Positions 3,671-34,425 of a stretch of DNA of 34,425 bases are shown here, piece by piece (within the stretch, counting starts at the first letter, position 1; every line of letters begins with the position of its first letter). Source of the stretch: Omnitrophica bacterium RIFOXYB12_FULL_50_7 (GTDB lineage Bacteria; Omnitrophota; Omnitrophia; Omnitrophales; Aquincolibacteriaceae); the NCBI GenBank assembly GCA_001804345.1, contig MHFU01000056.1, forward strand, positions 11,034-45,458, given 5' to 3'. The translations under genes were made by a program, and so were the position numbers. The notes under the pieces are model-generated. The model was not told where the DNA came from. It saw only the letters and a list, made by a program, of their open reading frames with translations, and searched no databases.

Positions 3671-3690
3671 ATGCTGTTGCAGGAGTTTCT

Positions 3691-3741: not shown

Positions 3742-3804
3742 AAACAAGGAGTTTTTCTTTTTGTGATGACCGCCTTCCAAAAACTCTTATAATAAGCCCC
3801 GCTT

Positions 3805-10665: not shown

Positions 10666-11016
10666 GGGCTAGATTCTAACGTTGATTGGTCCGAATTCAA
10701 TATAACTTTCCCTCTTGAGATCAGCGATATTAACTTCGCTGAGGATAAGAAGCCGGCTCGGTAATCTCTCCGGAATATAGATTGTGTAAAAATGAGGCGT
10801 TGTTCTATAATTCCCAGCAGCAACGGACAATTAGACTTCCGCAAATGTGTTTGGTGTTCACGTTTCTCTATACGACCGAATGAACTTAAAAAAGTTTTCC
10901 AGAGTTTTTAGCGCGCTAATGGACACCCTTTGGGCACCGAAGGCTGGTGGTATAGAAAAATCTTATGCGGTGTAATGAAACCCAACCCGTTAATGCGCAA
11001 GTAGTTGTAGCATCGT

Positions 11017-11103
11017 GGAGAGGTGGCAGAGCGGTTGAATGCGGCAGTCTTGAAAACTGCTAAGTCCGCAAGGGCTTCGGGGGTTCGAATCCCTCCCTCT
11101 CCG
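11017..11103 (+). tRNA. tRNA-Ser(UGA)
   Basis: Acceptor GGAGAGG/CCTCTCC, anticodon arm GCAGT CTTGAAA ACTGC, long variable arm, T-loop TTCGAAT. Confidence 0.92.
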
Positions 11104-11190
11104 TCTTACCTGTGTAAAACGATGTCGCCGACGAGGTTCAAGGAATACTTCGTACGGTAAACGCCGCCACCTTCGGGGAGGGGATTTTCC

Positions 11191-11244
11191 GCCACACAGC
11201 GTGGGCGGATCCGTCCGAGCATTTTGGCGGAGAAGGGAGCCCCG
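11191..11244. repeat. Dispersed ~50-nt repeat found downstream of tRNA genes (copy 2)
   Basis: GCCACACAGCGTGGGCGGATCCGTCC...GGCGGAGAAGGGAGCCCCG aligns with 3691-3741. Confidence 0.45.
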
Positions 11245-11310
11245 AAGGCGCTTATGACAGGCGTCATAAGTGCGGGGCGGAGGGCCGACCCGGAATGAAA
11301 TGGAGGGCGC

Positions 11311-11394
11311 CGAATCCCTCCCTCTCCGTTTTACCTTTGTAAAACGACGTTGTCGTCGAGGTCTAGGGAAAACCTCGTACGACAGACGCCGCCA
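11311..11394 (+). repeat. Duplicate of the tRNA-Ser(UGA) 3' end plus ~65 nt of downstream flank
   Basis: CGAATCCCTCCCTCTCCGTTTTACCTTTGTAAAACGACG...CGTACGACAGACGCCGCCA aligns with 11086-11169. A third, degenerate copy lies at 11549-11580. Confidence 0.7.
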
Positions 11395-11714
11395 TTTTTT
11401 TCAATAAAAAATGACGGCACCGTGACGATTTAGTGAAATCGTCATGGTGGCAATAAAGGGATTCGAAGCCGACCTGAGCGCCACGGGTTCAAGCGAAGGC
11501 GGCCGGCTTCGGAGGAGGCTTGCGACAGCAGGCCGGAGGAGAAGGAAACCCTCTCTCCGTTTTATTGGTATAAAACGACGTCAAGCGTTTTGGAAAAGTC
11601 CCTCCTTTTGATCCAGAAGCCTGTATTGCTATTTCAAAAAACATGTGTTATCTTCCCGGCACCTGCGCGCTTCTGATTTTTTGCGGGAATCTCTCAAGAA
11701 GGAAAATAAACCCA

Positions 11715-19607: not shown

Positions 19608-19719
19608 GGTTAGGCCTCCTTTTATTCATTATTATCATATAATATATTCATATTTCGTAAAAATGTCAATGTTTTCTCGTGTTTTATTTAAAATACGTCC
19701 TATAAATGAGCCTTCTCCC

Positions 19720-19748
19720 TTGTAAAAGTCCAACAAGGAGGTTATATT
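19720..19748 (+). promoter_or_regulatory. Possible sigma70 promoter for the giant ORF
   Basis: TTGTAA, 17-nt spacer, TATATT within a 285-nt AT-rich divergent intergenic region. AT-rich context makes chance matches likely. Confidence 0.3.
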
Positions 19749-19893
19749 TTCGGAATTATGAGATTTTAGTTTTGGAGAGGTTTCTATTCTGTAAAACTAA
19801 AAATATTCATTTAAAAAGAAGCAAGACTGCAATTTAACGCTTTGCAAAAGATAGTTGTTTGAGAGCAAGCCATTCTTCTCTCCCGCTCGGATC

Positions 19894-22800
19894 ATGAGGA
19901 AGCAAACGCCCAGAAACAAAAAAAGGAACCATAAAGAAAAAATGAGGGAGATTTCTAGTTTCAAGCGAACCATCAGCCTGATCATCGCTGTTTGTTTTCT
20001 GACAACGAATGCGATGGCTATGCCTGGTCAGGAAGCGTGGCTCGGGGAACGTGGAACGGGGAACGTATTCGGATCGAAAGATATTCTCTCGCTTTCTATG
20101 CCCTCGTCTCTTGGAACCGTTGTTGAAACTTATCGTGTGGAACAAAAAAACAGGCGTGGCACCCGTTTCCCGTTCACCGTTTCCCGGCACGACCCCATGG
20201 TCGTGTACATTCAAGACGCGCACGACTCCCTCGAAGCCCAGGAAAATATTGCTGGGATGGTCAAGTATCTTACGGAGCAGAAAGGCGTGCGGACAGTCTA
20301 TGAGGAAGGCTATGAAGGCCCGGTCCCCTCTGACCAACTCTTTGGAAACATCCAAGACACGACGCTTAAAGAAAAACTCTCCTATTACCTCATGGACAAA
20401 CTCCGCGTCAGCGGTGCTGAGTATGCGCACATTAACCGACTAGCGGATAGGGTACAGGGTATAGGGTATAGGAAAAACAAAAACAGTGAAGACCTATCCC
20501 TTAAACCCTATCCCCTAAACCCTGATTGGCAATTAATCGGTGCGGACTCGATCGCACTCCATCTCGAAAACATCCGGGCCTACGAACAAAGCGCCAAGAA
20601 ACGCGGGGATATTACCAAGGACATCCAGCGGATCCGCAAAGAACTTCAAAGGATCATGGACCGGAATTTTCCGAAAGAAATCAAACGGTGGATGGAGTTG
20701 CAGAGACGTTATCAGAATGGCCAATTACCGCTGATGGAATATTTACGCAGAACTTATTTGCTGTGGGAAACGGGAAACGGGAAACGGGCAACGAAAACGT
20801 TCAGCGTTCCCCGTTCCCCGTTCCCCGGGATCGGGGCCCTCTTTTCCGGCGATGAAAAAAAAATCAAACAGATCGATCTTGTGAAGCTGATGAGCGAGAT
20901 TCGCCAGCTCGAGGAAGAGGTGGTCGGAAAAGGACTTCCCGGGGATAGCGACCGGAAAACTTACGGGTATTATCAAAGCGTCCTACTTCTCGAAAAACTC
21001 AACGCGATCCAATTGAGTGCTGAGGAATATGCGGCACTCAAGGAATCACTTGAAAACCTCAAGACAGAAGATCTCGCTCAATTCATTGCCCGTGAAACGG
21101 GTCGGTCGATCGTGCTGTTCCGCTCCTGGGAAGATCTCATTACGGATTCGATCAATTTTTATGAGCTCGCGAAGAAACGTGACGAGGCTCTCGGGAAAAT
21201 TTTAGGGGATAGCGTAGAGGGTATAGGGTATAGGAAAAACAAAAACAGTGAAGATCTGCCTCCTAAACCCTATCCCCTAAACCTTAATGCTTCCATTTTG
21301 GTTTTTGGGGGTTTCCACAAAGAAGCCATCAAAAAGATCCTGAAAGAAAAAGGAATCTCGTACGTCATCCTTTCCCCATCCATTACCTCACCGAGCAAGC
21401 GGCATGAGGATTATTATCAGATGCTGATGAGCGGTGGAAAACACGCTTTCGAAACGCCTTCGGGCTTTTCGAAAAGACCACAGTCCCAATTCCAATCAAT
21501 TGAAGCGAATCGGAAATTGGGGCAGCCCCGACTACCATTCATTAAAAGAAATCAAAAGTTGGGACAGACCAGAGACTATAGACTAAAGACCAAAAGCCTC
21601 CTCTCCCCGCGGGAGAGGGAAGGGGTGAGGGGGAAAAGTCTCCAGTCTCCAGTCTCTAGTCTCCAGTCTGGCGGGAAGAGCGGTAGCGATTCACGACAAA
21701 GCATCGCCCGCGAAAGCACCTGCCCGCAGCGTGCTGTTGCAATGGATTACGCGCCCGTGATGGACCATCTCGCCGAAACCGGCGCGCCATTCCGTTCCGA
21801 AACCCGGGCGAATTTTATTTTGAAAATGGACCACGCCCTGTCGGACGAGCACCAGATTGCACCCTACAAACACCCGGGATTTGTAGGGTCAAACGAGAGC
21901 GCCCGCGCGGAGGTGCGGTCTGAAGTTCGATTGGGATTTCCGCCACTTGCAAAAAAATATCAACGATACATTGCCAAGCATGATTTAGATGCGCGGCCGG
22001 TACAAGCACAGCTGATTCATCCTGCTTTAGTCGGTCACGATATGGCCCAGAAGGACGTCATCAATCCCAATGACAAAGAACTTGCGGCGCTTGTTGCGGG
22101 TCCTAATGTTGATATTTCGAAAGTTTTACTCATGAGCAACGCGACGAAAGCTTTCTTTGTGGGGCATCGTCTGGGATTTCTTAAAGCTGATCGATTGCGG
22201 GATCGCCTCACGGCAACGGATTGGGAAAAACCTATTGAGCTGGAAGAGTATCGAGATCACAAATTCCGTACAGGCAGGGCACCGCTATACGAAGGCGTTA
22301 TTAAGGATGCTGAAACTGCCATTCTTATGGAATTACAAGCAATGCAAGTTGAGAAATCCAGCATTCAAATCTTTGATGATGCTGGAGCTAATGACGGCAA
22401 ACTCGCTGTAAGGATTCGCTTTCAATGGGCTTATCACAATCGCAAAGAGCGGGAATATGAATTTACGTTCTTTGATCATGATATTGAGCAAGGAAACTAC
22501 CCGCCGCTTTTAGAACAAGCGCTTAAAGAGAAAATAGACGTTTATCTTCAGTGGGCGCCTGGAACTCTGAGCGAAGCGTACCGCTATTTTCTGAGGCGCA
22601 TTTTGCCTGCGCTGCGGGAGGGTGGGCATATGGTTACGGATGATCGATATTACCATTCGTTTCTGAATGATGTGATTCATTACAGTATTTGTCCTTTTCT
22701 TGAGGATGATGATTCTAATTGGCAAGCGCGAGGTGTGAAAACGCAACCTTTCCAAAATGACTTTTTTATATTCGCGGCGCAAAAGGGAAACGACGGCACT

Positions 22801-25800
22801 TGGTTTGAACGCATCAGAACCATTTTAAAGTGGACCCTTTTGGAACCCTTCGCAGCGCCATTGCTTAAAGCTATTCAAGCGATTCAGGAAGCCTGGAATC
22901 AATGCTTAAGCAATTATTATCATCGGAATGCACATTCTGGTGATCCGCGCCAAAGGCAAAGAGCTCGATGGTCTCTGAAATTGCCCCTCCATTTCAACTG
23001 GATAAGACATTTTGATCTCAGTCGAAATTTTCATTTATATGGGTGGAATGTCCAAATCAGTCAAAAACAAGGGCCCAAGAGTGTGCGCTATCGTAAGCTG
23101 CCACGCGCAGGATACAAAGATCTAAAAGCGCTCAATCTTCATTTCGGAAAAAATCCTCGAAAAACTATGGAAAAAAGCACCTTGTGGGCAGGGGGCGCAG
23201 CCATTTTATTTTCTGCGGCTATGTATTTTGCAAATGCTGTTTCTGATAATGTAAGCTTTCTTTTCTGCGTGCCATTTTTATCTTCAATCGAATTTTTATT
23301 TTTAGCTCTAACATATATTTTCACGCTTCATTTTCTCCCTCAAGTTATTTATTGTTTTGATACGGAACGACGATATGACGCGTTCTCGCCCGGAACGCAC
23401 AGCCGAATTTATCATCCTGAAAACTACAACAATCTTGAATGGCTCCAACACAAATTTGGCGTGGCCCCGCAGGACCTTCGTGAGGCCTACCATGCCATGA
23501 TAGAAGATGTTTATGAGCGGTTAGTCAATCGCTCGATCACGACCGAGGTATTAACACTAGGTTTCTATGAAGATACGAAGGATTATTTGGAACAAGAAAA
23601 AAAACCTCCCTTCGCTCAAGCGGATATTGATATAGCAAGAAAGCGTTTGTCTATCTATATCAAGGAGAAAGATCCCATAAGACGCAAGCTAAGTTTTGAC
23701 CCGGATCATTTGGAGGCAATGAAAGTCATTGGCCGTAAAGAAGATGGCTCGCAAACACTAGATATTATTCCCTTTATCGCAGGGCAAACAGGAGTTCCCC
23801 TTACTCAGACGTTTAAAGAGTTGCTTCATTCAGCCGAGGCGGGGGGCATGGCTCTTCGCAGACAAGGGAAAGAAAAAATCGTTCTTCTTAAAGAGGCTGA
23901 TGATATTTCGATCTTGACCATTGATAAAAAAGGCAAAGTCTTCGTCTCGGGCGTCAGCCGTGGCGGGACTATTTTGGACTATGCTGACGACAAAGTATTT
24001 TTGGAAGAAGGTGCGAAGCCTGTATTTTGTTATCACTCACATCCATGGGCCTCTCCCTTGACTGAAGAGAGAAGTCTTCCGCAAATACTTGCTCCCAGCG
24101 ATGCTGATGAACGGGGGATCGCAAAGATATCAAAAAAATTCCATAGAGCAATCCCTGAGATTATATGGGCTTATGATAGAGAAAAACACAGGCTGGTCGG
24201 ATGGTTTTATGAGCTAACGGGCGATGATTATGAAAAATTAAACAATCCAACAGAACTTACCGTCACTTTAGCAAAACAGCAGCAATTAGATTTCCAACAA
24301 ACACAACAACCGGATAGCGTCCTCACGGGAGGGGTCAGGACGGAAGCCCGCTCGGAAACGAGGGGAGGGAGTCTAAGGGGTTTTGCCGGTGGGGATATTG
24401 AGAAGGACGCTCGTAAGTTGGCGGCGGGGGATACGGCGGCTGGCGTCAAGGATCTCGATGCCGAACACCCGGCCGTTCTTGGCGATATCCATCATAATGC
24501 CGTCGGACACCTTGCGGGCGTGTTTGATCTTGCCCGTCTGGAACTGGATGTACAACGCATCCGCTTCCCGATCGAACGATATTTTCATAAGGAATTTTTA
24601 ACGGGCGGAGAGGAAATCTTCCCAGGACGTCTCGATGTCCTTGAGAATAGAATTCAAAAGCCCTTTTCCGAGATCTTCGCCTTTGTGAAAAGGAACTACC
24701 GTCGCGCGGCCGTCGGGATGGCGAAAATAAATATGACTGCCTTTCTGGCGGAGGCGTTCAAAACCGAGGCGGGTAAGAATGCGGATGACTTCGGAAGAGC
24801 GGAGAGGAATGAGGCGGGCCATCAGTTGACTTCGATCTCCTGGAGTCCGACAAAATCCATGGGCTTGAAGGAAGACCCCTCGACTTCAAGACATAACTGG
24901 ATGGCCTCTTTCATGCGGGGGATAAGAGTGGTAAGGGATTTTGCCTGCGTGTGGCATCCCCGCAGACTGGGGCACGATCCCACAAAGACACCGTCTTCGT
25001 CTTTTTCAATGATGACCATGAAATTTTTCTTGCGCATTTTTTCACCTCTTTCTGTCCCGGATGATATCCCGTCTCTTTTAGGAAGTCAAGGTTTCGCCAT
25101 GGCAGGAGGCGTTGGTACACCGATGGTTTCTCTATTATTAGCTCGTTCGGAAGCGCGTACCGATCAACCTGTCCCCTTGATGCCTGGTACCATTTCTAAG
25201 ACCCGGCTTTCCACCCTGGACACACCGGGTGTGGACAAGGGGGAGAAGCGTTCCGAGATGCGTGTGCCGAATGTTATGGGTAAGGAGCCGAGAGAGATTG
25301 TGATCCGATGGAGCTCTGAAACGGAAAGTACAGATGAAAAAAAACAACATGTCATTGCAGAAGTATGGGATCCGGCTCTGAAAGAACAATTCGGCGTTGG
25401 AGTGTTTTATGTTGAGGACCAAAAGATCAGGATATCGGCTTATTTTCCCATCGGTAAGATAGATGATCCTTCCGGAAAATGGTTCAGAAACAGAGGGAAA
25501 GGAATCTCTTCCACTTTTTTATTTTGGTTGAGCCATTTTGCCATGGCCAATGGCATACGGGAAATCTACATCCAAAGCGACAAGGCGATTAACATTCCGC
25601 TTTTTCGGAAATATTTTGCCGGTCAGTTTTGCCGTCACCCTCATGGAATGACGGAAGCAGAGGTTTGGCAGGATATGGAAAAGGTCGAAGACCCTGCAAC
25701 CGGCGAGGGGCTTTATTCGGAAGCAGTGTTAGGTGAAATAGGAATCGCCGATCTTGCGACCATGGAGATTACGGCTTATGTACGGCTTTCACGGCTTCCG

Positions 25801-28800
25801 GAGCCGGGCGGGCAGTATCGAGTGGATGGGGTGGAGGACAATGTAGAAAGGCTCAAGCAGTACGCTCGTGAAGACGGATTGAAAGAAAGCTCGGTAGTGG
25901 TGACCTTCCCGAAAGCTTTAAGGCCTGGAGCTTGGCTGGAAATCACCGAGAGAGGCATTGTGAAAATTGAAGGAAAAACCATAGGAATTATCAAAGTCGC
26001 AGCAGGGCCGCACTTTGCCGTGAAAGGGGTGCCACGTTTTCCGGAAGAATTGCGATCACTTTCCGAGAGCTTTTACCAAAAAGAAAACCTTCTATTACCA
26101 ATCTCCCAACCAGAAGACTCTAAAGTTCGCTCCGAGGCAAGGGCGGAACTGCGTTCGAAGGATTTCGAAGAATTTATCACCGGCATCGAAAAATTTGTTA
26201 AACATAAAATTTCAAGGCCGGCCCAGCGGGTATTTTGGAAAACGATTGGCTGGATGCATCGCTACCGTTATTACATCACTCCTGCAGTCGTGGCGATAAC
26301 CGCTCTCGCTTATTACATTTTTCTAAAAGTACAAAATTTTCACGAAAAGAACATCCAAAAACCTCTTCGCATTCAAGAGCAAAAGGATGTCCCGGATTCT
26401 TTTCCATCGAGTGGTGCAACGACTACCGAAAAAAAGTCCAGCCGTTCGGAAGCAAGAAACAATATCGCGCAACCACTTTCAACCTACGCGGTTGAAAGCG
26501 GTTCCCATCCTCGCTCGGAAGAGAGGCGGGACAATATTGAAATAGAAAAACTTTTTCCCGATGATGTTGAGGAGCTTCTAAAGTTTAGAGACAAATATTT
26601 TGTTCCCAGGATTGCCTTGGGACTTGAGAAAGCCAAATGGAAGGAAGTTTTTTACAATATCGCCTATGGAGTTCACACGGATCCGACCATGATTTATCTT
26701 GCCAATGATAAAGAAAAAATTGTGGGCTACGTCACGGCGACGGATTTTTCTTCCTGGGAGAAAAGAAAGGGTGAAGGATGGGTGGGCGAGTTTGCCGTGC
26801 ATCCCGAGTATGAAGATCAAGGACTCGGAACAAACCTTTTTGAAAAGGCGCTGGATTGGCTTAAGGAAAGGGAAGGAGTTCGCGTGATTAAACTGACGGA
26901 TGCCTCCGTCCCAGTAGAGATTGACGGCCAAATGGAGAGCCGGGTTGCCAAAATAGCTCAAAAGTTTGGGTTTGAACTTCCCCCAGGGGAGATAAACGAA
27001 TGGCAATTAGATTTGGGGAAGAGTTCTCAGGTGGACGAATCCGACGAAGACCGGATTTTTTTTGGTGATTGGGGCGATGAAGACGATGATAACGATGAGC
27101 GTTCCGAATTGCGCCGGCCTGTCGGTCAGACAGGGGCCCCCTCAAAATCAGGCGAGACAGCGGTCACAGAGTTGTTTAATGGAATACCTGACAACGAGCG
27201 CAAGCTGATCGGGCCTCAGATGAGGGACGTTATTTTTGGGGACTATAGCGACTTTCAGAGGCAGCTTTTCCGTTCGCAATCCCTTCTGCATATTTATCAA
27301 GAAAACCTTGTTGATTTTTTCCGCCTCCACAAAAAAGACTTTCCCGTTTTGCATCGATATCTCCAGACAATTATCAATAACACCACATACGAAAACTGCT
27401 TACCAACCAACGGCCTCGAGCTTTTGTTTTACCGTGTGGTGCGTGCCCGCTACAGCAAAATAGAGAAGCTTACGGACGCGAGTTTAAAGGCCTTTGACGA
27501 GATTTTGCCAGAATTTGTAAAAACAGTTTCGCTGATATTAGCGAACGCCTATGCAGGTAAAATTAAAACCTCGCCCGCGTTCCGGGAAGCCCTCTTTTTG
27601 AGGGAAGAGATTTTGTACCAAACAAATCCCGAAAAAATCCGGGACATCGGCCGCAGAGTGAAAGAAATTTCAACGAGTCCCTCATGGGATGACGATGGTG
27701 AAGCAAAAAAGCGGGCGGAATTGCGGGAAGAAGATAGAGCAACGGGCACTTCACTCGCCACAACGCGTTGGACGAATCCGCCAACCCTCGAACAGATCCA
27801 GACATTGCGGCAGTTGCAGGAACAGGCGGACATGACTCAGCGGGCATTTGCGAATGCAATCAGAACGCATGAGGCGACTCTCTCTAGGATAAAAGCCGGA
27901 AAAGAATCTGCTCGTTGGGCGGCAGTGCTTATCCAGAGGGCGAAAGAGATTCTCAGGGATAAATTGCAACAGGCGCAGATGCCGGCAACACCGGAACAAA
28001 TCAGGGAATTTCGATCCATTCGGGAGCGTCTGAAGCTTTCTCCGGAGCGGTTCCGGGAGCTTCTTGGGCTTTTGGAGCCCGGAGAGCTATCTTTCAAGAG
28101 AATGGAGGAGCTATTACTAAAAGCAAGGCGGTTGGTTCCGTCTTCTGAAAAAGTTCAAGAATTAATCCGTATCCGGGAAGAAAAAGGATTGAGTCGGCAG
28201 GAGCTGGCTGCCCTGCTAAAAATCCCGGCAGAAACGCTTCTTGCCGCGGAACGAGGAGAAATGATCGCTTCCCAGGTTAAAACTTTGCTCTTGAAACTTA
28301 AACGGAAAAAAGCGTTGCCCAAAGATCCCGATCCGGAAGCGCTGGAAGCCGGAAGACGGTTAAAAACAATACGGGAACAGCATTTCCCGGGTTTGACCCA
28401 GGCGCGATTTGGAAACATGATCAATCCGGACATGAAAAATCCACAGTCCAGCATTTCTATGGCGGAGCGAGGGTTCACCAGCAAGGAAAGGTTCGAGCGG
28501 TTTATTCGATTAGCCCAAGCCCATATAACCGCTCAACCGTCGACTGAAACCGGTCGCGAAATTCGCTCACCCGACAAAGACCCGGTCCTAGGACCGGGTC
28601 TTAGGAAGGGTGAAGGCCGTTCGGAAATTCGTTTTTCAAATTTCCGCACTGAGAGTGGCAAAGCCACCGTGCGTGCGGAGGTGCGTCGCCCCAAGAAGGG
28701 GGGCGGAAAACGGAGGGCAAAAGCTGTGACGCAAAGGAAATCCCAAAAGGCACTTTCTTTATATTCTTTCTTCGGACTTCTGGCAGCCGGAGGTCTTTTT

Positions 28801-31800
28801 CTGGTTGCAGAAAGATTTTTAAACACACCCCTTGAATCTGGCGAGAAAAAACCCGCACCGATCGGTTTAGTTTCCAAAACCGAACGAGCACCGCCTCAAA
28901 GCACGGAGTCTTCATCTGCTGAAAAAGTTGATCCCGTACCTTTTTTCACTCCGGAATCCTTACGAGAAATTTCTCTTGAAAAACTTATCCCGTTGTCCGC
29001 TTTACAGAACTCCTACTTTTGGTTCGATCTTCATTCCGGGGAAAAAGCCGGTGAGCGATTAGCTTCTTTTATCGAACGGATAGCGAAAGAAAAACAAGGA
29101 GCCGATATTTTCCGTATCCGGGTCGTTCGGGAAAATGGCTTTTCTCTTTTAGAAGTTAGAAAAAGAGTCCAAGTGTTGTTTGAAAGAGGAGAGATTTCCG
29201 AGGGTGATTTTAAATGGATAATGAATCTACGCGCTGAAGATTTTAACGATGGAGGAAAGAGAAAAAAAATCGAACGAATCGTTGCCCAGTGTGTGGAACA
29301 AGCCAACGGGGAATGGCCTAGCGAATACCCCTTGGAAAACAAAACTATCTCAGGTGCTACTTTAGAATTTGACCGGGAGCTCCTTGAAAGATTAATAACG
29401 AATGAAGCGTTGGGAAAGAAAATAGTTTTTGTTAATGAAACGGTTCATCTTGAGCCGACGCTTCTCCAGATGGAATATGAACTGCTCAGAGAACAGGCCG
29501 TCAAGGCGCTACTATTCGAAGTGGACGAGAGCCAGGTCTTTGTGGCCTATTTTTCGTTGATCAAGCGATCCATGCAGGCCAAGTACGAGTCACAGGAAAT
29601 TCGGGAAATGAACTATATCCGGGAAAAAATCCTGCCGTTGTTAAAAGATCCCCGACAGGACCAGGATGTTCATGTTTTTCCAAGAGGGACGCAACATTTC
29701 TTTTTACTCGAACATCTTTTCCCTCAGTTGATCGGGGCGCTTTCTTTGCAGCAGCTCTATTTGGTGGAACATGCTTGGGAATATTCCATGGCGGATGTGG
29801 AAAGGATCGGGTTAACGCGGTGGAGAGAAAAACGGTTGGCCGAGGACTTCAGCGAATCCGAGAAAGAAACGCTTCTCAAAGATGCTCTTCATCAACTACT
29901 TCTGATGGTCATGAAGCCGCTTTTTGCCAGCCCGAAGCAGTATGATCCCGAATTGTTTTCGAAAGCGAGCAACTCAGTGCTGAGAAATTTATCAGCCGAG
30001 CAGGTAAAGGAAATTCTAGAAGAGATCCGGTTGCTGAGCCAGCAGATGAAACCTTTACCGGAACCAGAGCAATTCTTTGGTATTTTGGGGTGTGTGACAT
30101 GGGCAAGAATTCAAGATTTGTTGCCGGGTGAATATCGCGATCAATTTATAAAAGTCATCATTGACCGCGAACCGGAACGGCTGAGGATCATTAAGGACCA
30201 TAAAACGGAAGTGAAACCTATTCTTTATTCCGTCCCGCTTGTCCCGCGCTCGGAATTGCGCCTGCCCGCCCAGGAGTCAGTGGCGGGGGCTGCCATTTCG
30301 CCGAAAGCAGAAGGCGATTCGCGCCTCTCAAAAGAAATTCTTAAATATCTTTTAAATTTAGAAAATGCGGCTAAGCGTCCCAATAGCGCTATTCGTCAAA
30401 CCGCTTTTACTATGCGCAGTACGATTCTTGCCGCCTTGGCCGATCAAGGGCGCCGGCTTCCATTGAAGAACAGAGTTTTTGAAACAACCGACGATTTTAG
30501 TATCCGTAACCGCCTGGCGGATTTTGCCGCGTCCATTGATCTTGCGATCACTCTCATCGAACAAGGCCAAACCCCCGACCTTGTTTTTGTTAAAAAGAAA
30601 CTTACTGACCGTGATCCGCGTATTCGCCAAGCCGCTTTTAAGGCCTCGGTTTCTCTTGCGGCGGCCTTGTTCAAAAAAAGTAAAAAACCCAATCTTTCTT
30701 TTTTGAAAAATGCATTACTTGATACGGATCCTTATGTTCGCGCCGATGGCCTTATCGCCTTTAGCATGATTACCGCCACTCTCATTGACCAGAAAAGAAT
30801 CAAACTCCCCGATCCTTACCTGGATGCTGTCGAAGCCGCTAAAGCTGTTGCGCGCACGGTTACAAATTCCTTCACGGATTATGGGCAACCCTCCGAGCCC
30901 TCTCTCTTTGATTTAGCACTTTTCGATAAAGCGACACCCATTTCTCAAGCGATTATTATTGCCCTTGGGAACATCGCGGCCGCTTTGATCAGACATGGCA
31001 GGATTTCCAGCCTTGTTTTTTTTATAGGGAGACTTACCGACCATGATCCGCGTATTCGCCAGGCCGCTGTTACGGCTTTTGGTACTATTACCTGCGCCCG
31101 TATTGACCAGGGTAAACCTCCTCAATTTTCTTTCTTTAATACAGTTCTCAAAGATCCTGATTCGGAAGTTCGCCAAGCCGCTGTCACGGCTTTAGGCGAT
31201 GTTGACACGGCTCTCGGCAAACGAGGCCCAATCCCCAATCTATCTTCTTTTGATACAGCTTTTAATGATTCCAACTCAAGGGTTCGAACGGCGGCCGTTA
31301 CTGCTTTCGGCGCTGTTGCGGCAGCTTCGATCAAGCATCAATACCGGATCCCTGAATTGTCTCTTTTTCATAAGGCCTTTGCTGACACTAATCCTGATGT
31401 TCGCAAAGCCGCTTTCACAGCTTTCAGCACTGTCGCCATTCGCTGCATTAACCAGGGGCAGACTCTTCCTGACCTTTCTCCCTTTAATAATGTTGAAAAC
31501 GATCCAGATGAAAGCGTTTACACGACAGCTCTTATCGCTTTTGATGCCATTGCCGCCGCTTCTATTAGGCGAGGCCAAAATCCTGATCTATCTCCTCTTA
31601 ATAAAGCCCTTTCTGATTTCAGCGGAGATGTTCGGGCTACCGCCCTTATCGCCTTCGGCGCTGTCAGTGCCAGCCGTATCGATCAAGGTCAAACTCCCGA
31701 CTTGTCTCTTTTTCAAAGGAAGCCCAAAGATACCGACCCGCGTATTCAGCAAGCCCTGCTCATTGCCTTGGGTGCTGTAACAGCGGCGGAGATCCGGCAA

Positions 31801-34425
31801 GGTAAATTTTCGGACGAAGATTACGAGAGATATGAACTTTGGCTTCAGGAGCAGTTCCCGAGTTACGAGCCGATCGCGGTCGAGTATTTGGAGGCCAAAG
31901 ATCCACGGGCTTATATTGATTCCATCCGTCTCATTGCTAAGGACAGTATTGCCGGGGGTCCAATATTATTCAAACACCTGGAGCGGCATCACTCCGCGGA
32001 AGAATGGAAAGCGATTCAATCTTTCCATCATATTGTTCATGATAATCTGGGAATGGTTTTACAGGCGCTCACGGTCACCGGTTATCCCCTCAGCCGTTTT
32101 GAAGATTTAAGAAAAGTCCTTCCCTTTAATAATCCACTGACCCGTATTCTCCGGCTGTTGGGGGAGCCGTCGGATATCATTGGCGGCTACGTGGATGTTA
32201 CCAAGAAATTAATTCTTGCCGGTCAATTCAGCTCCTTCTACAGAATTATTCTGGATGTCGCGGAGAAAAGAGGGCGCCTCGCTCCCCAGGAGATTTCCGC
32301 TATGCTGGAACTCTTGCGTGCTACTTCCTTTGAAAGGTGGACCGAAAAGGACTGGAATAAGTTCTACGGAGATATTAGCCGTTACCACGCCGCAGGTTTC
32401 AAGGCCCTGACTCCCGAGCTCTTTAATTTTTTTATCCAAAACGAAAACAAGCCTGCCGTTATTACCCAATTTCATAAAGACGTTACCAGGGAACTCGGCG
32501 TTTCAATTGCCTGGGGTTCTTTCGCGGGTCTTACTCCCGCATTCAGGAGAAAATACAGCGTCTCATCTGCGGGCGAACTCGCCCTTCTTGCCAAATATAT
32601 TCCTATCGCCAATCTCTCGAGCCGGGATTACGAGGGGAAATATCTGGAGATCCAGTCCGCTTTAAACGAAAGACGGGGCTGGAAAGAAGAAGTCCCTCCT
32701 GCTCTCCGGTCTCTTTATTCCATTACCGGAACCCGTGGCAGTGTGTCTTATGAAATCCCGCCTGAAACCGCCTCCAAAGACGAGGCAAACCATCGCGATG
32801 AACTTCACCGCCGGCTTCAGAGCTATACCCAGACTCCTCTCAGAACTTTTGAAGAGCTGATCGGTCTTATGGGTACTTCCGAGTATTCGACTCTCCCAGA
32901 TCTTGAGAAAAAGCGCGCTGTCCTTCAATGGTCTTTTCGAACGGCGAAGCTTGATCCCCGACCCTATTCCCAAATACCAAACTCTGATGCCGAGCTCTTA
33001 GGATGGTTGAATCAGTGGACTTCTTTTTTTCGGGACACCTGGAAACATGACCAGCCCCCGGCCGCGAAAGAGCTTGTCCGTCAGAAAATTCTTTCACTTA
33101 AAGGGCCTCCTCTTGAAACCCTGAAGCAGGAGATGAGGTTGGATCGCTACCAGATGATTCGTCTCCAGGACCCCAAGCGCTTCCTTCCGAGAACGAGTGA
33201 ACTTTATGACATTCTGACGAATCCTTCACTTGCCCCGGGCGACAGAGAACAAAGACTGGCGAGGGAATTCCAAAGCCGGCTTTCTCAGGTTTCCTCAGAG
33301 GACCTTGGCAACGAATCTTTCATGAAAGACTTTTTTGAAAAAACCAAAACCAAAGCCCTGGAAGCGGTTACGCGTCACGCGCTTGACAAGGCAAAAAAAC
33401 CTCTTAGTTTCGAAGAGCTTGACTCTTTTGGCAGCTTGATCGCTTCTGCTCTAGGCGGGAGTTATCAAGCCGTACAAAAGCAGATAAATGGTCAATCGGA
33501 CGAGGACCGTAAACTCGTTATTCTCGCTGATCGTGTCGCCCAGCAGTATCTCACTCTTTTTAGCGAGGATATTCAGGCGACCAGCGAAGAGATTCCCCGA
33601 TACAAGCGGACCGAAACAGCTTCCGAGACAGAATTCCGTGTTGGTTTTTTTGATGACCTGTTGCATCTGATGAGTTTTATGATGACAGGGGTCTGTACCT
33701 GGGTTGAAAGAGACAGACAAGTTTCGGACCGACGTTATCATTTCGGAAAAATAGCACTTAAAGATACCGAGGGCCGCGTCTTAGGCGCAAGTCAGGTCCA
33801 GTTGGCCAAAGTCCACATCAAGGGCGCCGCTCCCAAAACCTCTCCTCAGGGGTGGTCGGTCATGGCGCTTCCGGGGAATAATCTTTTTCAGGGGGAGATC
33901 GGCATTAGTAATGAAAAAGCAATGTTGGCCATTTTAGAATATGCCCAGCGGTCGGCCGAAGAGGCAGGCCTTGAAGGCGCCGTTATCCCTACCGATGCTG
34001 CTATTCACACAAATCAGGAAGGAACCGTCGGTAAAATCATTCAATCTCTTCATGCCAAAGGATGGTTAAGATCCGTTTCTCTTACAGGGTCCATTGTTCT
34101 TTCTGCGGAGTATGCTTACTCGAACGTCTGGCTCATCCAGATCCCGGAAACCGCATTCCAGTTGACTTCCCCCTCTCAGAAAAGACCTCTTTCCGAAAAT
34201 GAGATCGCGGAAAAGGAAATAAAAGCTCAAAAAGAAGGGAAGGTTGTTGCCGGAGGTTTTATAGAAATTGTTCCTCCCCAGGGCGCGCGGGCGGAGGTGC
34301 GGGCAGGACAAGAGATCCAGGCGCTTACCGAGGAAGTCCTCGATACCATGCCGCAACAGGTTGTCCGGCATATTCGTAACTATATCCAGGAATATGATAT
34401 CGAGGTCCGCGTTGTTCCCAATCCG
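19894..34425 (+). CDS. Giant multi-module membrane-anchored protein, 3' end beyond the window (at least 4,844 codons)
   Basis: No stop in frame 1 from the TAG at 19852-19854 to base 34425. First ATG is 19894 (a TTG lies at 19855). N-terminal signal anchor RTISLIIAVCFLTTNAMA. Recognisable GNAT, HTH and HEAT-like modules. No terminated track ORF occupies this frame. Confidence 0.85.
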   Translation, partial: MRKQTPRNKKRNHKEKMREISSFKRTISLIIAVCFLTTNAMAMPGQEAWLGERGTGNVFGSKDILSLSMPSSLGTVVETYRVEQKNRRGTRFPFTVSRHDPMVVYIQDAHDSLEAQENIAGMVKYLTEQKGVRTVYEEGYEGPVPSDQLFGNIQDTTLKEKLSYYLMDKLRVSGAEYAHINRLADRVQGIGYRKNKNSEDLSLKPYPLNPDWQLIGADSIALHLENIRAYEQSAKKRGDITKDIQRIRKELQRIMDRNFPKEIKRWMELQRRYQNGQLPLMEYLRRTYLLWETGNGKRATKTFSVPRSPFPGIGALFSGDEKKIKQIDLVKLMSEIRQLEEEVVGKGLPGDSDRKTYGYYQSVLLLEKLNAIQLSAEEYAALKESLENLKTEDLAQFIARETGRSIVLFRSWEDLITDSINFYELAKKRDEALGKILGDSVEGIGYRKNKNSEDLPPKPYPLNLNASILVFGGFHKEAIKKILKEKGISYVILSPSITSPSKRHEDYYQMLMSGGKHAFETPSGFSKRPQSQFQSIEANRKLGQPRLPFIKRNQKLGQTRDYRLKTKSLLSPREREGVRGKSLQSPVSSLQSGGKSGSDSRQSIARESTCPQRAVAMDYAPVMDHLAETGAPFRSETRANFILKMDHALSDEHQIAPYKHPGFVGSNESARAEVRSEVRLGFPPLAKKYQRYIAKHDLDARPVQAQLIHPALVGHDMAQKDVINPNDKELAALVAGPNVDISKVLLMSNATKAFFVGHRLGFLKADRLRDRLTATDWEKPIELEEYRDHKFRTGRAPLYEGVIKDAETAILMELQAMQVEKSSIQIFDDAGANDGKLAVRIRFQWAYHNRKEREYEFTFFDHDIEQGNYPPLLEQALKEKIDVYLQWAPGTLSEAYRYFLRRILPALREGGHMVTDDRYYHSFLNDVIHYSICPFLEDDDSNWQARGVKTQPFQNDFFIFAAQKGNDGTWFERIRTILKWTLLEPFAAPLLKAIQAIQEAWNQCLSNYYHRNAHSGDPRQRQRARWSLKLPLHFNWIRHFDLSRNFHLYGWNVQISQKQGPKSVRYRKLPRAGYKDLKALNLHFGKNPRKTMEKSTLWAGGAAILFSAAMYFANAVSDNVSFLFCVPFLSSIEFLFLALTYIFTLHFLPQVIYCFDTERRYDAFSPGTHSRIYHPENYNNLEWLQHKFGVAPQDLREAYHAMIEDVYERLVNRSITTEVLTLGFYEDTKDYLEQEKKPPFAQADIDIARKRLSIYIKEKDPIRRKLSFDPDHLEAMKVIGRKEDGSQTLDIIPFIAGQTGVPLTQTFKELLHSAEAGGMALRRQGKEKIVLLKEADDISILTIDKKGKVFVSGVSRGGTILDYADDKVFLEEGAKPVFCYHSHPWASPLTEERSLPQILAPSDADERGIAKISKKFHRAIPEIIWAYDREKHRLVGWFYELTGDDYEKLNNPTELTVTLAKQQQLDFQQTQQPDSVLTGGVRTEARSETRGGSLRGFAGGDIEKDARKLAAGDTAAGVKDLDAEHPAVLGDIHHNAVGHLAGVFDLARLELDVQRIRFPIERYFHKEFLTGGEEIFPGRLDVLENRIQKPFSEIFAFVKRNYRRAAVGMAKINMTAFLAEAFKTEAGKNADDFGRAERNEAGHQLTSISWSPTKSMGLKEDPSTSRHNWMASFMRGIRVVRDFACVWHPRRLGHDPTKTPSSSFSMMTMKFFLRIFSPLSVPDDIPSLLGSQGFAMAGGVGTPMVSLLLARSEARTDQPVPLMPGTISKTRLSTLDTPGVDKGEKRSEMRVPNVMGKEPREIVIRWSSETESTDEKKQHVIAEVWDPALKEQFGVGVFYVEDQKIRISAYFPIGKIDDPSGKWFRNRGKGISSTFLFWLSHFAMANGIREIYIQSDKAINIPLFRKYFAGQFCRHPHGMTEAEVWQDMEKVEDPATGEGLYSEAVLGEIGIADLATMEITAYVRLSRLPEPGGQYRVDGVEDNVERLKQYAREDGLKESSVVVTFPKALRPGAWLEITERGIVKIEGKTIGIIKVAAGPHFAVKGVPRFPEELRSLSESFYQKENLLLPISQPEDSKVRSEARAELRSKDFEEFITGIEKFVKHKISRPAQRVFWKTIGWMHRYRYYITPAVVAITALAYYIFLKVQNFHEKNIQKPLRIQEQKDVPDSFPSSGATTTEKKSSRSEARNNIAQPLSTYAVESGSHPRSEERRDNIEIEKLFPDDVEELLKFRDKYFVPRIALGLEKAKWKEVFYNIAYGVHTDPTMIYLANDKEKIVGYVTATDFSSWEKRKGEGWVGEFAVHPEYEDQGLGTNLFEKALDWLKEREGVRVIKLTDASVPVEIDGQMESRVAKIAQKFGFELPPGEINEWQLDLGKSSQVDESDEDRIFFGDWGDEDDDNDERSELRRPVGQTGAPSKSGETAVTELFNGIPDNERKLIGPQMRDVIFGDYSDFQRQLFRSQSLLHIYQENLVDFFRLHKKDFPVLHRYLQTIINNTTYENCLPTNGLELLFYRVVRARYSKIEKLTDASLKAFDEILPEFVKTVSLILANAYAGKIKTSPAFREALFLREEILYQTNPEKIRDIGRRVKEISTSPSWDDDGEAKKRAELREEDRATGTSLATTRWTNPPTLEQIQTLRQLQEQADMTQRAFANAIRTHEATLSRIKAGKESARWAAVLIQRAKEILRDKLQQAQMPATPEQIREFRSIRERLKLSPERFRELLGLLEPGELSFKRMEELLLKARRLVPSSEKVQELIRIREEKGLSRQELAALLKIPAETLLAAERGEMIASQVKTLLLKLKRKKALPKDPDPEALEAGRRLKTIREQHFPGLTQARFGNMINPDMKNPQSSISMAERGFTSKERFERFIRLAQAHITAQPSTETGREIRSPDKDPVLGPGLRKGEGRSEIRFSNFRTESGKATVRAEVRRPKKGGGKRRAKAVTQRKSQKALSLYSFFGLLAAGGLFLVAERFLNTPLESGEKKPAPIGLVSKTERAPPQSTESSSAEKVDPVPFFTPESLREISLEKLIPLSALQNSYFWFDLHSGEKAGERLASFIERIAKEKQGADIFRIRVVRENGFSLLEVRKRVQVLFERGEISEGDFKWIMNLRAEDFNDGGKRKKIERIVAQCVEQANGEWPSEYPLENKTISGATLEFDRELLERLITNEALGKKIVFVNETVHLEPTLLQMEYELLREQAVKALLFEVDESQVFVAYFSLIKRSMQAKYESQEIREMNYIREKILPLLKDPRQDQDVHVFPRGTQHFFLLEHLFPQLIGALSLQQLYLVEHAWEYSMADVERIGLTRWREKRLAEDFSESEKETLLKDALHQLLLMVMKPLFASPKQYDPELFSKASNSVLRNLSAEQVKEILEEIRLLSQQMKPLPEPEQFFGILGCVTWARIQDLLPGEYRDQFIKVIIDREPERLRIIKDHKTEVKPILYSVPLVPRSELRLPAQESVAGAAISPKAEGDSRLSKEILKYLLNLENAAKRPNSAIRQTAFTMRSTILAALADQGRRLPLKNRVFETTDDFSIRNRLADFAASIDLAITLIEQGQTPDLVFVKKKLTDRDPRIRQAAFKASVSLAAALFKKSKKPNLSFLKNALLDTDPYVRADGLIAFSMITATLIDQKRIKLPDPYLDAVEAAKAVARTVTNSFTDYGQPSEPSLFDLALFDKATPISQAIIIALGNIAAALIRHGRISSLVFFIGRLTDHDPRIRQAAVTAFGTITCARIDQGKPPQFSFFNTVLKDPDSEVRQAAVTALGDVDTALGKRGPIPNLSSFDTAFNDSNSRVRTAAVTAFGAVAAASIKHQYRIPELSLFHKAFADTNPDVRKAAFTAFSTVAIRCINQGQTLPDLSPFNNVENDPDESVYTTALIAFDAIAAASIRRGQNPDLSPLNKALSDFSGDVRATALIAFGAVSASRIDQGQTPDLSLFQRKPKDTDPRIQQALLIALGAVTAAEIRQGKFSDEDYERYELWLQEQFPSYEPIAVEYLEAKDPRAYIDSIRLIAKDSIAGGPILFKHLERHHSAEEWKAIQSFHHIVHDNLGMVLQALTVTGYPLSRFEDLRKVLPFNNPLTRILRLLGEPSDIIGGYVDVTKKLILAGQFSSFYRIILDVAEKRGRLAPQEISAMLELLRATSFERWTEKDWNKFYGDISRYHAAGFKALTPELFNFFIQNENKPAVITQFHKDVTRELGVSIAWGSFAGLTPAFRRKYSVSSAGELALLAKYIPIANLSSRDYEGKYLEIQSALNERRGWKEEVPPALRSLYSITGTRGSVSYEIPPETASKDEANHRDELHRRLQSYTQTPLRTFEELIGLMGTSEYSTLPDLEKKRAVLQWSFRTAKLDPRPYSQIPNSDAELLGWLNQWTSFFRDTWKHDQPPAAKELVRQKILSLKGPPLETLKQEMRLDRYQMIRLQDPKRFLPRTSELYDILTNPSLAPGDREQRLAREFQSRLSQVSSEDLGNESFMKDFFEKTKTKALEAVTRHALDKAKKPLSFEELDSFGSLIASALGGSYQAVQKQINGQSDEDRKLVILADRVAQQYLTLFSEDIQATSEEIPRYKRTETASETEFRVGFFDDLLHLMSFMMTGVCTWVERDRQVSDRRYHFGKIALKDTEGRVLGASQVQLAKVHIKGAAPKTSPQGWSVMALPGNNLFQGEIGISNEKAMLAILEYAQRSAEEAGLEGAVIPTDAAIHTNQEGTVGKIIQSLHAKGWLRSVSLTGSIVLSAEYAYSNVWLIQIPETAFQLTSPSQKRPLSENEIAEKEIKAQKEGKVVAGGFIEIVPPQGARAEVRAGQEIQALTEEVLDTMPQQVVRHIRNYIQEYDIEVRVVPNP
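20044..20187. repeat. In-frame heptamer inverted repeat (GGGAACG-type) with 96-nt interior
   Basis: Left arm GGGGAAC GTGGAAC GGGGAAC G. Right arm CCGTTTC CCGTTCA CCGTTTC CCGG. 144 nt, equal to 48 codons. Confidence 0.6.
20446..20523. repeat. In-frame palindromic element (GGGTATA-type), copy 1
   Basis: GATAGGGTACAGGGTATAGGGTATAGG, then AAAAACAAAAACAGTGAAGA, then CCTATCCCTTAAACCCTATCCCCTAAACCCT. 78 nt, equal to 26 codons. Confidence 0.7.
20765..20829. repeat. In-frame heptamer inverted repeat (GGGAAAC-type)
   Basis: (GGGAAAC)x3 GGGCAACG, loop AAAACGTTCAG, (CGTTCCC)x3 CGGG. Related to 1545-1603. Confidence 0.7.
21208..21285. repeat. In-frame palindromic element (GGGTATA-type), copy 2
   Basis: About 90 percent identical to 20446-20523. 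Located 762 nt (254 codons) downstream in the same frame. Confidence 0.7.
21563..21671. repeat. In-frame heptamer inverted repeat (AGAC/GTCT-type) with inner hairpin
   Basis: Left arm ACAGACC AGAGACT ATAGACT AAAGACC. Inner hairpin CCTCTCC..GGAGAGG. Right arm GTCTCCA GTCTCCA GTCTCTA GTCTCCA GTCTGG. Confidence 0.65.
23995..24130 (+). other. Possible JAB/MPN (RadC-like) metalloprotease motif region in the giant ORF
   Basis: FCYHSHPWASPL...LAPSDADERGI resembles HxHP...S..D, but with a longer spacer than the canonical JAMM motif. Confidence 0.3.
24373..24588 (-). CDS. DUF2283 family protein
   Basis: MKISFDREADALYIQF....GRVFGIEILDASRRI is the characteristic DUF2283 pattern. Lies 9 nt downstream of hicA. 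Confidence 0.85.
   Translation of the reverse strand: MKISFDREADALYIQFQTGKIKHARKVSDGIMMDIAKNGRVFGIEILDASRRIPRRQLTSVLLNIPTGKTP
24598..24822 (-). CDS. hicA: HicA family mRNA interferase toxin
   Basis: SSEVIRILTRLGFERLRQKGSHIYFRHPDGRATVVPFHKGEDLGKGLLNSILKD. Its start overlaps the hicB stop (TGATG). Confidence 0.9.
   Translation of the reverse strand: MARLIPLRSSEVIRILTRLGFERLRQKGSHIYFRHPDGRATVVPFHKGEDLGKGLLNSILKDIETSWEDFLSAR
24822..25037 (-). CDS. hicB: HicB family antitoxin (UPF0150-like)
   Basis: FMVIIEKDEDGVFVGSCPSLRGCHTQAKSLTTLIPRMKEAIQLCLE. AGAGGTGA RBS. Confidence 0.9.
   Translation of the reverse strand: MRKKNFMVIIEKDEDGVFVGSCPSLRGCHTQAKSLTTLIPRMKEAIQLCLEVEGSSFKPMDFVGLQEIEVN
25061..25089 (-). 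promoter_or_regulatory. Candidate sigma70 promoter of the hicB-hicA-DUF2283 operon
   Basis: On the minus strand: TTGACT (25089-25084), 17-nt spacer, TATCAT (25066-25061). About 24 nt upstream of the hicB ATG. Confidence 0.55.
25330..25640 (+). other. Possible GNAT-like module in the giant ORF
   Basis: FRNRGKGISSTFLFWLSHFAMANGIREIYIQ resembles the acetyl-CoA-binding motif A (R/Q-x-x-G-x-G/A). Confidence 0.35.
26536..26994 (+). other. GNAT N-acetyltransferase module in the giant ORF
   Basis: IVGYVTATDF...WVGEFAVHPEYEDQGLGTNLFEKALDWLKEREGVRVIKL...AQKFGFE. Confidence 0.7.
27778..28530 (+). other. Four tandem XRE/Cro-like helix-turn-helix units in the giant ORF
   Basis: Four units: LRQLQEQADMTQRAFANAIRTHEATLSRIKAG; FRSIRERLKLSPERFRELLGL; IRIREEKGLSRQELAALLKIPAETLLAAERG; LKTIREQHFPGLTQARFGNMI...SSISMAERG. 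Confidence 0.6.
28578..28601. repeat. Perfect 24-nt palindrome inside the giant ORF
   Basis: AGACCCGGTCCTAGGACCGGGTCT, translated in frame as KDPVLGPGL, 17 nt upstream of an RSEIR motif. Confidence 0.9.
30328..31805 (+). other. HEAT-like (PBS-lyase type) repeat array, about 11 units, in the giant ORF
   Basis: Recurring D.DP.[IV]R..A..A[FL]G.... units (DPRIRQAAFKAS, DPYVRADGLIAF, DPRIRQAAVTAFG, DSEVRQAAVTALG, NSRVRTAAVTAFG, NPDVRKAAFTAF...). Confidence 0.75.

Follow-up and report, generated by a model that had tools for sequence, protein, structure and literature searches.

Giant open reading frames (ORFs) are a hallmark of Candidatus Omnitrophota, and the post-translational fate of their products is an openly stated question: the cleavage points of these proteins are described as unknown (West-Roberts et al. 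2023, bioRxiv 10.1101/2023.11.21.568195), and unknown protease motifs have been named as an obstacle (PMC11573180). A 34,425-nt stretch of contig MHFU01000056.1 of Omnitrophica bacterium RIFOXYB12_FULL_50_7, the whole of which is referred to as the window, ends inside such a gene and raises the question of how a single chain containing many unrelated modules is organized. Here, we describe a specific, boundary-marking, and co-evolving pentapeptide, RSExR, in the modular mosaic family to which the product of this gene belongs. Judging from the sequences, the motif may mark the cutting points of the giant proteins.

Extent and coding status of the giant frame

The giant frame lies on the plus strand in frame 1, and amino acid positions are counted from the ATG at 19894. 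In this frame, the TAG at 19852-19854 is the last stop before the window end (base 34425), leaving a gap of 14,574 nt (4,857 codons), and the next longest stop-free gap in any frame is ten times shorter. The first ATG opens 4,844 codons without a stop up to the window end, which cuts off the 3' end; the window thus holds the 5' 14.5 kb of the gene (19894..34425). The stop scan and translation reproduced the coordinates and counts given for this frame in an earlier reading of the window from its letters (the sequence-only reading), and that reading's view of a giant, multi-module, unterminated gene is supported. Stop codons of all three types number 429 and 473 in the two other plus-strand frames over the window (~3.9% of codons), so that the openness of frame 1 by chance has a probability of ~(0.961)^4857, or ~1e-85. 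In addition, the GC contents of the codon positions follow the coding-type order GC1 > GC3 > GC2 along the entire giant frame, and the stop density is normal in the five other frames. Stop-codon reassignment was ruled out by the abundance of the three stop types in other frames and by the normal termination of neighbouring genes. The program-made ORF list misses the gene for the reason already proposed, namely that the ORF lister omits ORFs running off an end; the listed plus-strand ORFs downstream of 19894 (starts at 20009, 20526, and 31199) are all in other frames.

Positions 7913-29607 are 99.995-100% identical to contigs of six other assemblies from different samples (ENA and NCBI), which were retrieved via the divergently transcribed 564-aa neighbour and contain the 5'-most 9.7 kb of the giant frame. 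The same gene has been called at 4,829 aa and, on the 51-kb ENA scaffold_151, at 6,749 aa; as each of these calls runs into a contig end, the true product is expected to be longer than 6,749 aa. A search for a 3' extension found no exact match to the last 66 nt of the window in genome or metagenome contigs, and no near-identical 6,749-aa product was among the matches of a protein search with the giant protein. Beyond 29607, the giant frame is supported by one assembly, the window's own, and one internal segment (aa 1491-1750) has an odd composition and no homologues; both points would fit a mis-assembly, a chimera, or a decaying pseudogene. Such an artefact is very improbable in view of the chance estimate and codon periodicity given above, the agreement of six assemblies, the longer calls on other contigs, and the thousands of family members described below. 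Furthermore, the distal 820 aa (aa 4025-4844) align colinearly and without frame breaks with two other giant proteins, P0001 (45% identity) and P0002 (34%), which argues against a chimeric 3' part. We consider it nearly certain that the gene is at least 20 kb long, derives from Candidatus Omnitrophota, and belongs to a large family encoding giant membrane-anchored mosaic proteins.

A mosaic protein family headed by a conserved domain

The protein search yielded 174 matches, 120 of which are listed (P0001-P0120). These are 2,700-7,800 aa in length and carry unrelated Pfam sets, and among the matches listed, every one bearing an organism name is from Candidatus Omnitrophota. The only widely common part of the protein is aa ~50-525, where 119 of the 120 listed matches align with 35-57% identity. 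This family-defining N-terminal domain (N-domain; aa 60-525, 20071..21468, plus strand) was not mentioned in the sequence-only reading, nor were the recurrent RSExR motif and the in-frame palindromic DNA insertions described below. It is preceded by a signal anchor or signal peptide at aa 27-45 (19972..20028, plus strand), which consists of a positively charged n-region and then ISLIIAVCFLTTNAMAMPG, is conserved in homologues, and reproduces the N-terminal anchor noted earlier. The window protein thus displays the family arrangement, i.e. a signal anchor directly followed by a conserved domain of ~470 aa with the motifs QDAH, EEGYEG, AEYAHINR, and GGFH. The true start may be the second ATG (Met17; 19942..19944, plus strand), to judge from homologues, which begin 'MRE(T/F)FxFKR'; this position matches the N-termini of P0003 and P0005.

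Neither Pfam nor NCBIfam holds a model for the N-domain. A profile built from it matched 8,477 clusters at 50% identity, including 3,090 at E <= 1e-30, and the domain is located at the extreme N-terminus in all listed matches. In species-representative genomes, the profile identified 162 loci, the named ones nearly all from Omnitrophota, with several paralogues per genome. The sequence-only reading had compared the gene with giant genes known from uncultivated lineages; the lineage can now be given as Candidatus Omnitrophota, in which giant ORFs are documented.

The RSExR motif

The giant frame encodes 17 copies of the pentapeptide R-[S>A]-E-[VLMAI]-R at 14 separator positions, whereas shuffles predict 0.44-0.55; no copy was found in the 4,840 aa encoded by the other genes of the window. 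All copies are on the plus strand. RSETR at aa 634 (21793..21807) lies inside the tail of the N-terminal block and is followed by the doublet RAEVRSEVR at aa 671-679 (21904..21930), where homology with syntenic orthologues ends. The motif scan then identified the doublet RTEARSETR at aa 1482-1490 (24337..24363) and the pair RSEAR (aa 1751) and RSEMR (aa 1786), which are separated by a 30-aa spacer (25144..25263). A third doublet, RSEARAELR at aa 2079-2087 (26128..26154), precedes a transmembrane (TM)-like helix by 38 aa. Further positions obtained in the same scan are the pair RSEAR (aa 2184) and RSEER (aa 2207) with an 18-aa spacer (26443..26526), RSELR at aa 2403 (27100..27114), RAELR at aa 2607 (27712..27726), and RSELR at aa 3452 (30247..30261). 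Between the last two, RSEIR (aa 2909) and RAEVR (aa 2927) bracket a 13-aa spacer (28618..28686), and a basic stretch and a TM-like helix follow. The last copy, RAEVR at aa 4799 (34288..34302), lies inside the region aligning with P0001 and P0002.

Most of the 120 listed relatives contain 5-20 motif copies each, with fewer than 0.9 expected. An unbiased count of all gapped 5-mers across the variable regions put RSE.R first (626 observed versus 10.5 expected, a 60-fold excess family-wide), with RAE.R as the next independent pattern (133 versus 13.5), while the conservative variants KSExR (18), RSExK (15), and RSDxR (10) were near background. In 80 genomic loci, the motif density was 2.09 per 1000 aa in ORFs with the N-domain and 0.26 in neighbouring ORFs. 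At the fourth position, V, L, M, A, or I is found, and sequence conservation essentially vanishes outside ±1. The copies differ in their synonymous codons, which include four for Ser, six for Arg, and both for Glu, and the codon for x is free; this indicates a peptide-level signal and rules out the motif being a DNA repeat.

One relative of 4,929 aa (P0104) carries eight copies of RPEAR (0.011 expected) and a single RSExR. This lineage-specific, concerted switch across its sites implies a co-evolving reader, and we infer from such sequence patterns that the motif is read by a dedicated protein. When other motif-poor relatives were searched for an alternative separator, none was found in L087, L092, P0096, or P0089.

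A short, strictly conserved peptide without flanking conservation could also act in the ribosome and separate the products co-translationally, either like the viral 2A 'skip' or by stall-and-restart. There is no other pointer to such a role. The motif does not have the Pro/Gly chemistry of 2A peptides, and doublets and nearby pairs would be pointless for a peptide of this kind. To our knowledge, 2A-like separation has no bacterial precedent, and we regard it as very improbable here.

Module boundaries and cassette turnover

In the window protein and two richly annotated relatives, no Pfam domain straddles a motif. Complete enzymes lie at a distance of 12-20 aa from the motifs on either side: a full-length cytidylate kinase domain (Cmk, profile 1-208 of 211) starts 15 aa past a motif and ends 18 aa before the next, and a Bac_transf domain (profile 2-177 of 179) is separated from its bracketing motifs by 19 and 14 aa. 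The median distance between separators, 359 aa, is approximately the size of an ordinary bacterial protein. The module at aa 680-~1060 (21931..23073, plus strand) is common to the window protein, P0006, and P0007 and begins directly after a motif in all three proteins; from its end, the distance to a downstream motif is ~15 aa in P0006 and ~60 aa in P0007. TM-like segments are ~2-fold commoner than expected within 80 aa downstream of the motif, and the segment past the motif at aa 2927 (RPKKGGGKRRAK...LYSFFGLLAAGGLFLV) resembles the N-terminus of an independent anchored protein. Motif pairs also bracket short spacers of 13-30 aa.

Six to eight genomic loci possess the genes found upstream in the window and can thus be regarded as syntenic orthologues. 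In their giant ORFs, similarity to the window protein is confined to the first 550-700 aa (40-62% identity). The alignments stop at or just past the first RSExR, and over the next ~3,200 aa there is no relationship, even between one orthologue and another. These data indicate that the N-domain is kept while the cargo behind it is replaced.

The coincidence of these breakpoints with the motif, both in orthologues and in shared modules, would also be expected if the motif acted mainly as DNA, with the ~15-nt sequence CGN-TCN-GAR-NNN-CGN serving as a microhomology or site-specific recombination point for cassette swaps between paralogous giant genes. The extreme cassette turnover, the several paralogues per genome, and the predominance of TCN among the motif Ser codons (94% versus 69% in the background) are in line with this explanation. 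However, only ~9 of the 15 nt are fixed, given the codon freedom described above; selection acts on amino acid identity (R not K, E not D); the TCN bias is explicable by descent and by the S/A/T codon neighbourhood; and no recombinase linked to these loci was found. A mainly DNA-level function is therefore improbable, although a role in recombination may coexist with a peptide-level function.

At the other end of the chain, complete relatives terminate in a C-terminal domain (C-domain) of ~190 aa. A motif usually lies ahead of it, at 170-220 aa from the protein end, and an -[AS]A terminus is present in 108 of the 120 listed matches and in 23 of 27 closed ORFs. The window ends upstream of the C-domain region. 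The model of the C-domain (pLDDT 87.5) is a generic Rossmann-like sandwich with no specific relative. A role as a protease or secretion signal was considered and dropped, because the fold is generic and gave many unrelated matches at template modelling (TM) scores of 0.3-0.5. The complete members almost always end hydrophobic-x-x-[AS]-A-COOH, e.g. ...VFARAA, ...VIAIAA, and ...VISTSA (P0001-P0120 and closed ORFs in L015-L086). We take these termini to be reminiscent of ssrA/Tsp-type C-terminal recognition tags.

Possible processing at the motif or an intact scaffold

A boundary-marking peptide with a putative reader suggests a polyprotein or cargo carrier that is processed at RSExR. In such a scheme, the N-terminal anchor would insert the protein into the cytoplasmic membrane or send it across, a dedicated endopeptidase would recognize RSExR and set the modules free, some of the freed modules would bear a basic-plus-hydrophobic N-terminal anchor of their own, and the best candidate for the protease would be the protein's own N-terminal domain. 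We hold processing at RSExR tentatively, at a little under an even chance. The main competitor is an uncleaved, giant, membrane-tethered scaffold (a 'beads on a string' multi-enzyme assembly, as put forward for Archaeovorins), in which RSExR would be a docking, regulatory, or structural motif, such as an Arg/Glu helix bound by a partner or a lipid; this explanation we give a substantial minority share of the probability. The literature treats Omnitrophota giant ORFs as single membrane-associated proteins, and overlapping doublets such as RAEVRSEVR could form a short helix, given their i/i+4 periodicity. That 23 of 27 closed ORFs keep the N- and C-domains in a single chain suggests that the intact chain matters at least at some stage. 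However, a passive linker would tolerate K for R and D for E, a change from S to P throughout P0104 would not be expected of it, and a docking motif would still require a reader. Moreover, motif pairs around 13-30-aa spacers and modules starting with their own anchor look like processing products.

Several observations weigh against processing. The motif at aa 4799 is located where the sequence is conserved with P0001 and P0002, i.e. inside a module rather than between modules, as the scaffold would allow. Some junctions are motif-free: aa 680-1481 contains at least two units, and aa 3457-4798 contains a HEAT array and a large module. Some family members (P0096, L087, and L092) carry few or no motifs, so that the separators are non-obligatory. 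The residues flanking the motif are only slightly enriched in disorder-promoting types (62% versus 56%). Around the family loci, no conserved neighbouring protease or transporter was found, the synteny being at the lineage level only. If the N-terminal signal exports the N-domain, modules of cytoplasmic type, such as GNAT and helix-turn-helix (HTH) units, would need internal TM segments for their return to the cytoplasm. Finally, the protease that processing demands is a candidate only, and two results on this candidate count on the same side: the score of its top Pfam match, described next, is 16.6 bits against a gathering score of 27.7, with a match in 3 of 28 members, and its best PDB match by TM score in Foldseek, the erythromycin-esterase-family protein BcR135 (2rad_A), is non-significant (TM 0.22, E = 3.2). 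The low TM score can be attributed to a long helical insertion in the domain.

The N-domain is the best protease candidate because it is universal and catalytic-looking, having invariant His, Glu, and Arg residues and a weak likeness to a superfamily that includes sequence-specific endopeptidases. The invariant residues are D108-A109-H110, E137-E138-G139, E176/H179/R182, R429, G472-G473-x-H475, and H504. The AF2 model is confident (pLDDT 83.9, pTM 0.82) and consists of an alpha/beta core of six strands with flanking helices, which is split by a helical insertion of ~225 residues. The top Pfam match of the family consensus is PF04187 (ChaN, 'Tiki superfamily') in the R-D...G-G-x-H region, at a sub-threshold E = 0.008. 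A sequence profile against PDB gave noise only, and Foldseek searches against PDB and BFVD returned nothing significant. The TIKI fold is common to ChaN, Bcr135, and RRSP; catalysis in active members depends on a 2His/2Glu site, and RRSP acts as a sequence-specific endopeptidase (PMC6254334). The N-domain resembles the TIKI/TraB-PrgY/ChaN/erythromycin-esterase superfamily in its alpha/beta core, its strand-end motifs (x-x-A-H, E-E-G, and R-D...G-G-x-H), and its invariant His and Glu. It differs in that all its scores are below significance and its core is split by the insertion, and some members of the superfamily (ChaN and PMT) are non-proteases. The N-domain is thus weakly TIKI/ChaN-like in sequence and model, and the superfamily assignment is a lead rather than a result. 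No peptidase match was found in Pfam at E <= 0.1 for the whole 4,844-aa protein or at E <= 1 for the N-terminal 670 aa. That the N-domain is itself the protease cutting RSExR is, on these resemblances, less likely than not.

In its fullest form, the processing model would make the Omnitrophota genes a large-scale polyprotein system, in which each of thousands of chromosomal genes specifies as many unrelated enzymes and regulators as an operon would, the products are cut at RSExR by their own TIKI-like N-domain, motif and reader co-evolve, and cassettes are swapped at the junctions. We regard this complete picture as rather doubtful.

Modules of the window protein

All modules are encoded on the plus strand. 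The shared module at aa 680-~1060 is followed by a cluster of hydrophobic, TM-like helices at aa ~1095-1153 (23176..23352), with a hydrophobic segment at 23251-23307. Further TM-like helices are present at aa 2126-2144 (26269-26325), after the separator RSEARAELR, and at aa 2953-2971 (28750-28806), where a strongly basic stretch precedes. These three segments agree with the additional hydrophobic helices of the sequence-only reading. In the region of aa ~1380-1405, a JAB/MPN-like metalloprotease (H-S-H-P...S-D-A-D, an impression by eye) was considered and dropped, as it had no Pfam or PDB support.

An orphan module of odd composition occupies aa 1491-1750 (24364..25143). This motif-bounded segment is rich in W, C, M, and H, i.e. 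of non-protein-like composition, and its opposite-strand frames contain fewer stops than elsewhere; no Pfam match and no homologues were found for it, and the frame stays open. A GNAT acetyltransferase module was identified at aa 2212-2402 (26527..27099), with PF00583 matching aa 2253-2334 (E = 2e-13). This is the clear one of the two GNAT modules proposed earlier, whereas the possible second one (aa ~1790-2078) gained no Pfam or PDB support and was abandoned. Four Xre-type HTH units are located at aa 2612-2908 (27727..28617), where Pfam reports HTH_31 and HTH_3 and the count of four was obtained by eye, as in the earlier reading. An orphan module of ~500 aa lies between the TM-like helix at aa 2953-2971 and a HEAT-repeat array at aa ~3554-3970 (30553..31803), which Pfam recognizes and which had also been noticed in the letters. 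The Pfam types in the window protein are thus HEAT, GNAT, and HTH, and those in its relatives include methyltransferase, NUDIX, radical SAM, glycosyltransferase, and kinases.

The last part of the frame encodes a large conserved module whose fold has no match (aa 4025-4844+; 31966..34425); it continues past the window end. It contains an invariant 'FDDLLHLM..MM.GVCTW.ER..QV....HF.K' core with invariant Cys, His, and Asp. Relatives of this module are present in L087-L092, P0001, and P0002 and also in giant ORFs without the RSExR motif, but used as a profile against PDB and Pfam it gave no match. The internal modules (aa 680-3451) have no relatives at E <= 0.001 in a set of 5.8 billion proteins, which, together with the several orphan modules, accords with the long stretches that could not be assigned to any family from sequence alone.

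Palindromic insertions in the N-domain coding region

The coding region of the N-domain (plus strand) carries two types of palindromic DNA element, both as in-frame insertions. An 86-nt element is present in two copies (20441..20526 and 21203..21288, 88% identical to each other); this hairpin element encodes '..GIGYRKNKNSEDL..KPYPLN..', and copy 1 forms a loop insertion in the N-domain. The second type, a GGGAAACGx3 / CGTTCCCCx3 palindrome (20765..20827), encodes ETGNGKRATKTFSVPRSPFPG, and half-copies of it were identified at 20036-20071 and 20162-20185. Both types map to low-pLDDT loops of the AF2 model. The GGGAAACGx3 / CGTTCCCCx3 type was detected in 8 of 80 related Omnitrophota loci, with half of the matches inside ORFs. 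These elements resemble the in-frame palindromic elements of Rickettsia.

Neighbouring genes

The other genes of the window are ordinary bacterial genes, i.e. serS, a CofD-like gene, a TrkA-N/K+ channel gene, a radical SAM-SPASM enzyme gene, cstA, corA, rlmN, and four tRNA genes. Near serS (208-1479) are three tRNA-Ser genes with the anticodons GGA, GCT, and TGA (the tRNA-Ser genes lie at 1745-1833, 2261-2353, and 11016-11105) and one tRNA-Arg gene with the anticodon ACG (3550-3625). The gene at 4336-5694 encodes a CofD-like 2-phospho-L-lactate transferase fused to a weak N-terminal response-regulator receiver domain, which is unusual. A second unusual fusion, an 874-aa ORF at 6999-9623, combines a DUF2207_C membrane region with a TrkA-N/ion-channel protein and is split into two gene calls on another assembly. 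On the minus strand, 9634-10665 encodes a radical SAM enzyme with a SPASM domain (peptide-maturase type), and the adjoining ~1 kb (10666-11642) holds a tRNA-Ser gene only.

The divergent neighbour of the giant gene (17913-19607, minus strand) encodes 564 aa with a faint BNR/YCF48-like match only; it adjoins the orthologous giant gene in 8 loci, although the family as a whole does not retain this neighbour. The 286-bp gap between the two genes holds divergent promoter-like sites (19634..19748; consensus matches only), with the plus-strand site at 19720-19748.

Comparison with known systems

The giant gene itself is not new: it adds one more giant ORF to those of Omnitrophota, and public assemblies already contain it. 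Giant ORFs of this phylum have been published as 'Archaeovorins' (West-Roberts et al. 2023, bioRxiv 10.1101/2023.11.21.568195), as 'class 1 multi-enzyme metabolic clusters' (Nielsen & Lui 2026, bioRxiv 10.64898/2026.06.07.730766), and by Seymour et al. 2023 (PMC10066038). The gene described here shares with them the phylum, a signal peptide or TM anchor, many unrelated enzyme-type Pfam domains per chain, and poor conservation between genomes, and post-translational cleavage has already been suspected for the published giants. Their classes are set at >=10,000 aa or > 30,000 aa, whereas the gene here specifies at least 6,749 aa, its end not being reached. The window protein resembles Archaeovorins in its HEAT array (aa 3554-3970) and four TM-like regions; in Archaeovorins, C39/S8 peptidase domains have been invoked near the N-terminus, and none was found in the window protein by Pfam. 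In the class 1 clusters of Nielsen & Lui (>=10,000 aa), many Pfam families occur with none dominating, and the relatives here have 5-19 distinct Pfam families.

The openly searchable literature on Omnitrophota giant ORFs, to which the search was confined by the exclusion of subscription-only papers, contains no mention of the N-domain, the C-domain, or the RSExR separator, and a literature search with RSEVR, RSEMR, RSELR, and related strings returned nothing relevant. Within this literature, we could not find the architecture of an N-domain, RSExR-separated modules, and a C-domain described. The junction motif and the universal hydrolase-like N-domain, both family-wide, make the question of post-translational fate testable, and they predict module boundaries and neo-termini. 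If RSExR were cut by the protein's own N-domain, a cleavage code would be defined for the first time for giant proteins of Omnitrophota; if processing is false, these proteins are still organized by a specific, co-evolving interaction site, which the motif marks.

By analogy only, the closest functional counterparts are the MARTX toxins, giant proteins in which conserved ends likewise enclose a mosaic of interchangeable, strain-variable effector modules. In these toxins, an internal protease domain cuts the inter-effector regions and frees the modules (PMC6315884, PMC4453568), and the effector RRSP is a TIKI-superfamily endopeptidase (PMC6254334). The window protein is a non-member, as it has no matches to glycine-rich RTX-type repeats or to the InsP6-activated cysteine protease domain (CPD) in Pfam and NCBIfam and the N- and C-domains differ; the MARTX cleavage sites also differ from RSExR. 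Viral polyproteins and polymorphic-toxin cassettes likewise combine several units in one chain with short conserved junctions, and in polymorphic toxins, cassettes are replaced behind a conserved N-terminal trafficking part (PMC3482391). In contrast to both, the locus here is chromosomal and lies among housekeeping genes, its modules are mostly of metabolic or regulatory enzyme types, and no immunity genes were seen. If processing at RSExR is true, the Omnitrophota family would represent a polyprotein gene organization that is rare in cellular life, with a cassette turnover comparable to that of MARTX and polymorphic toxins.

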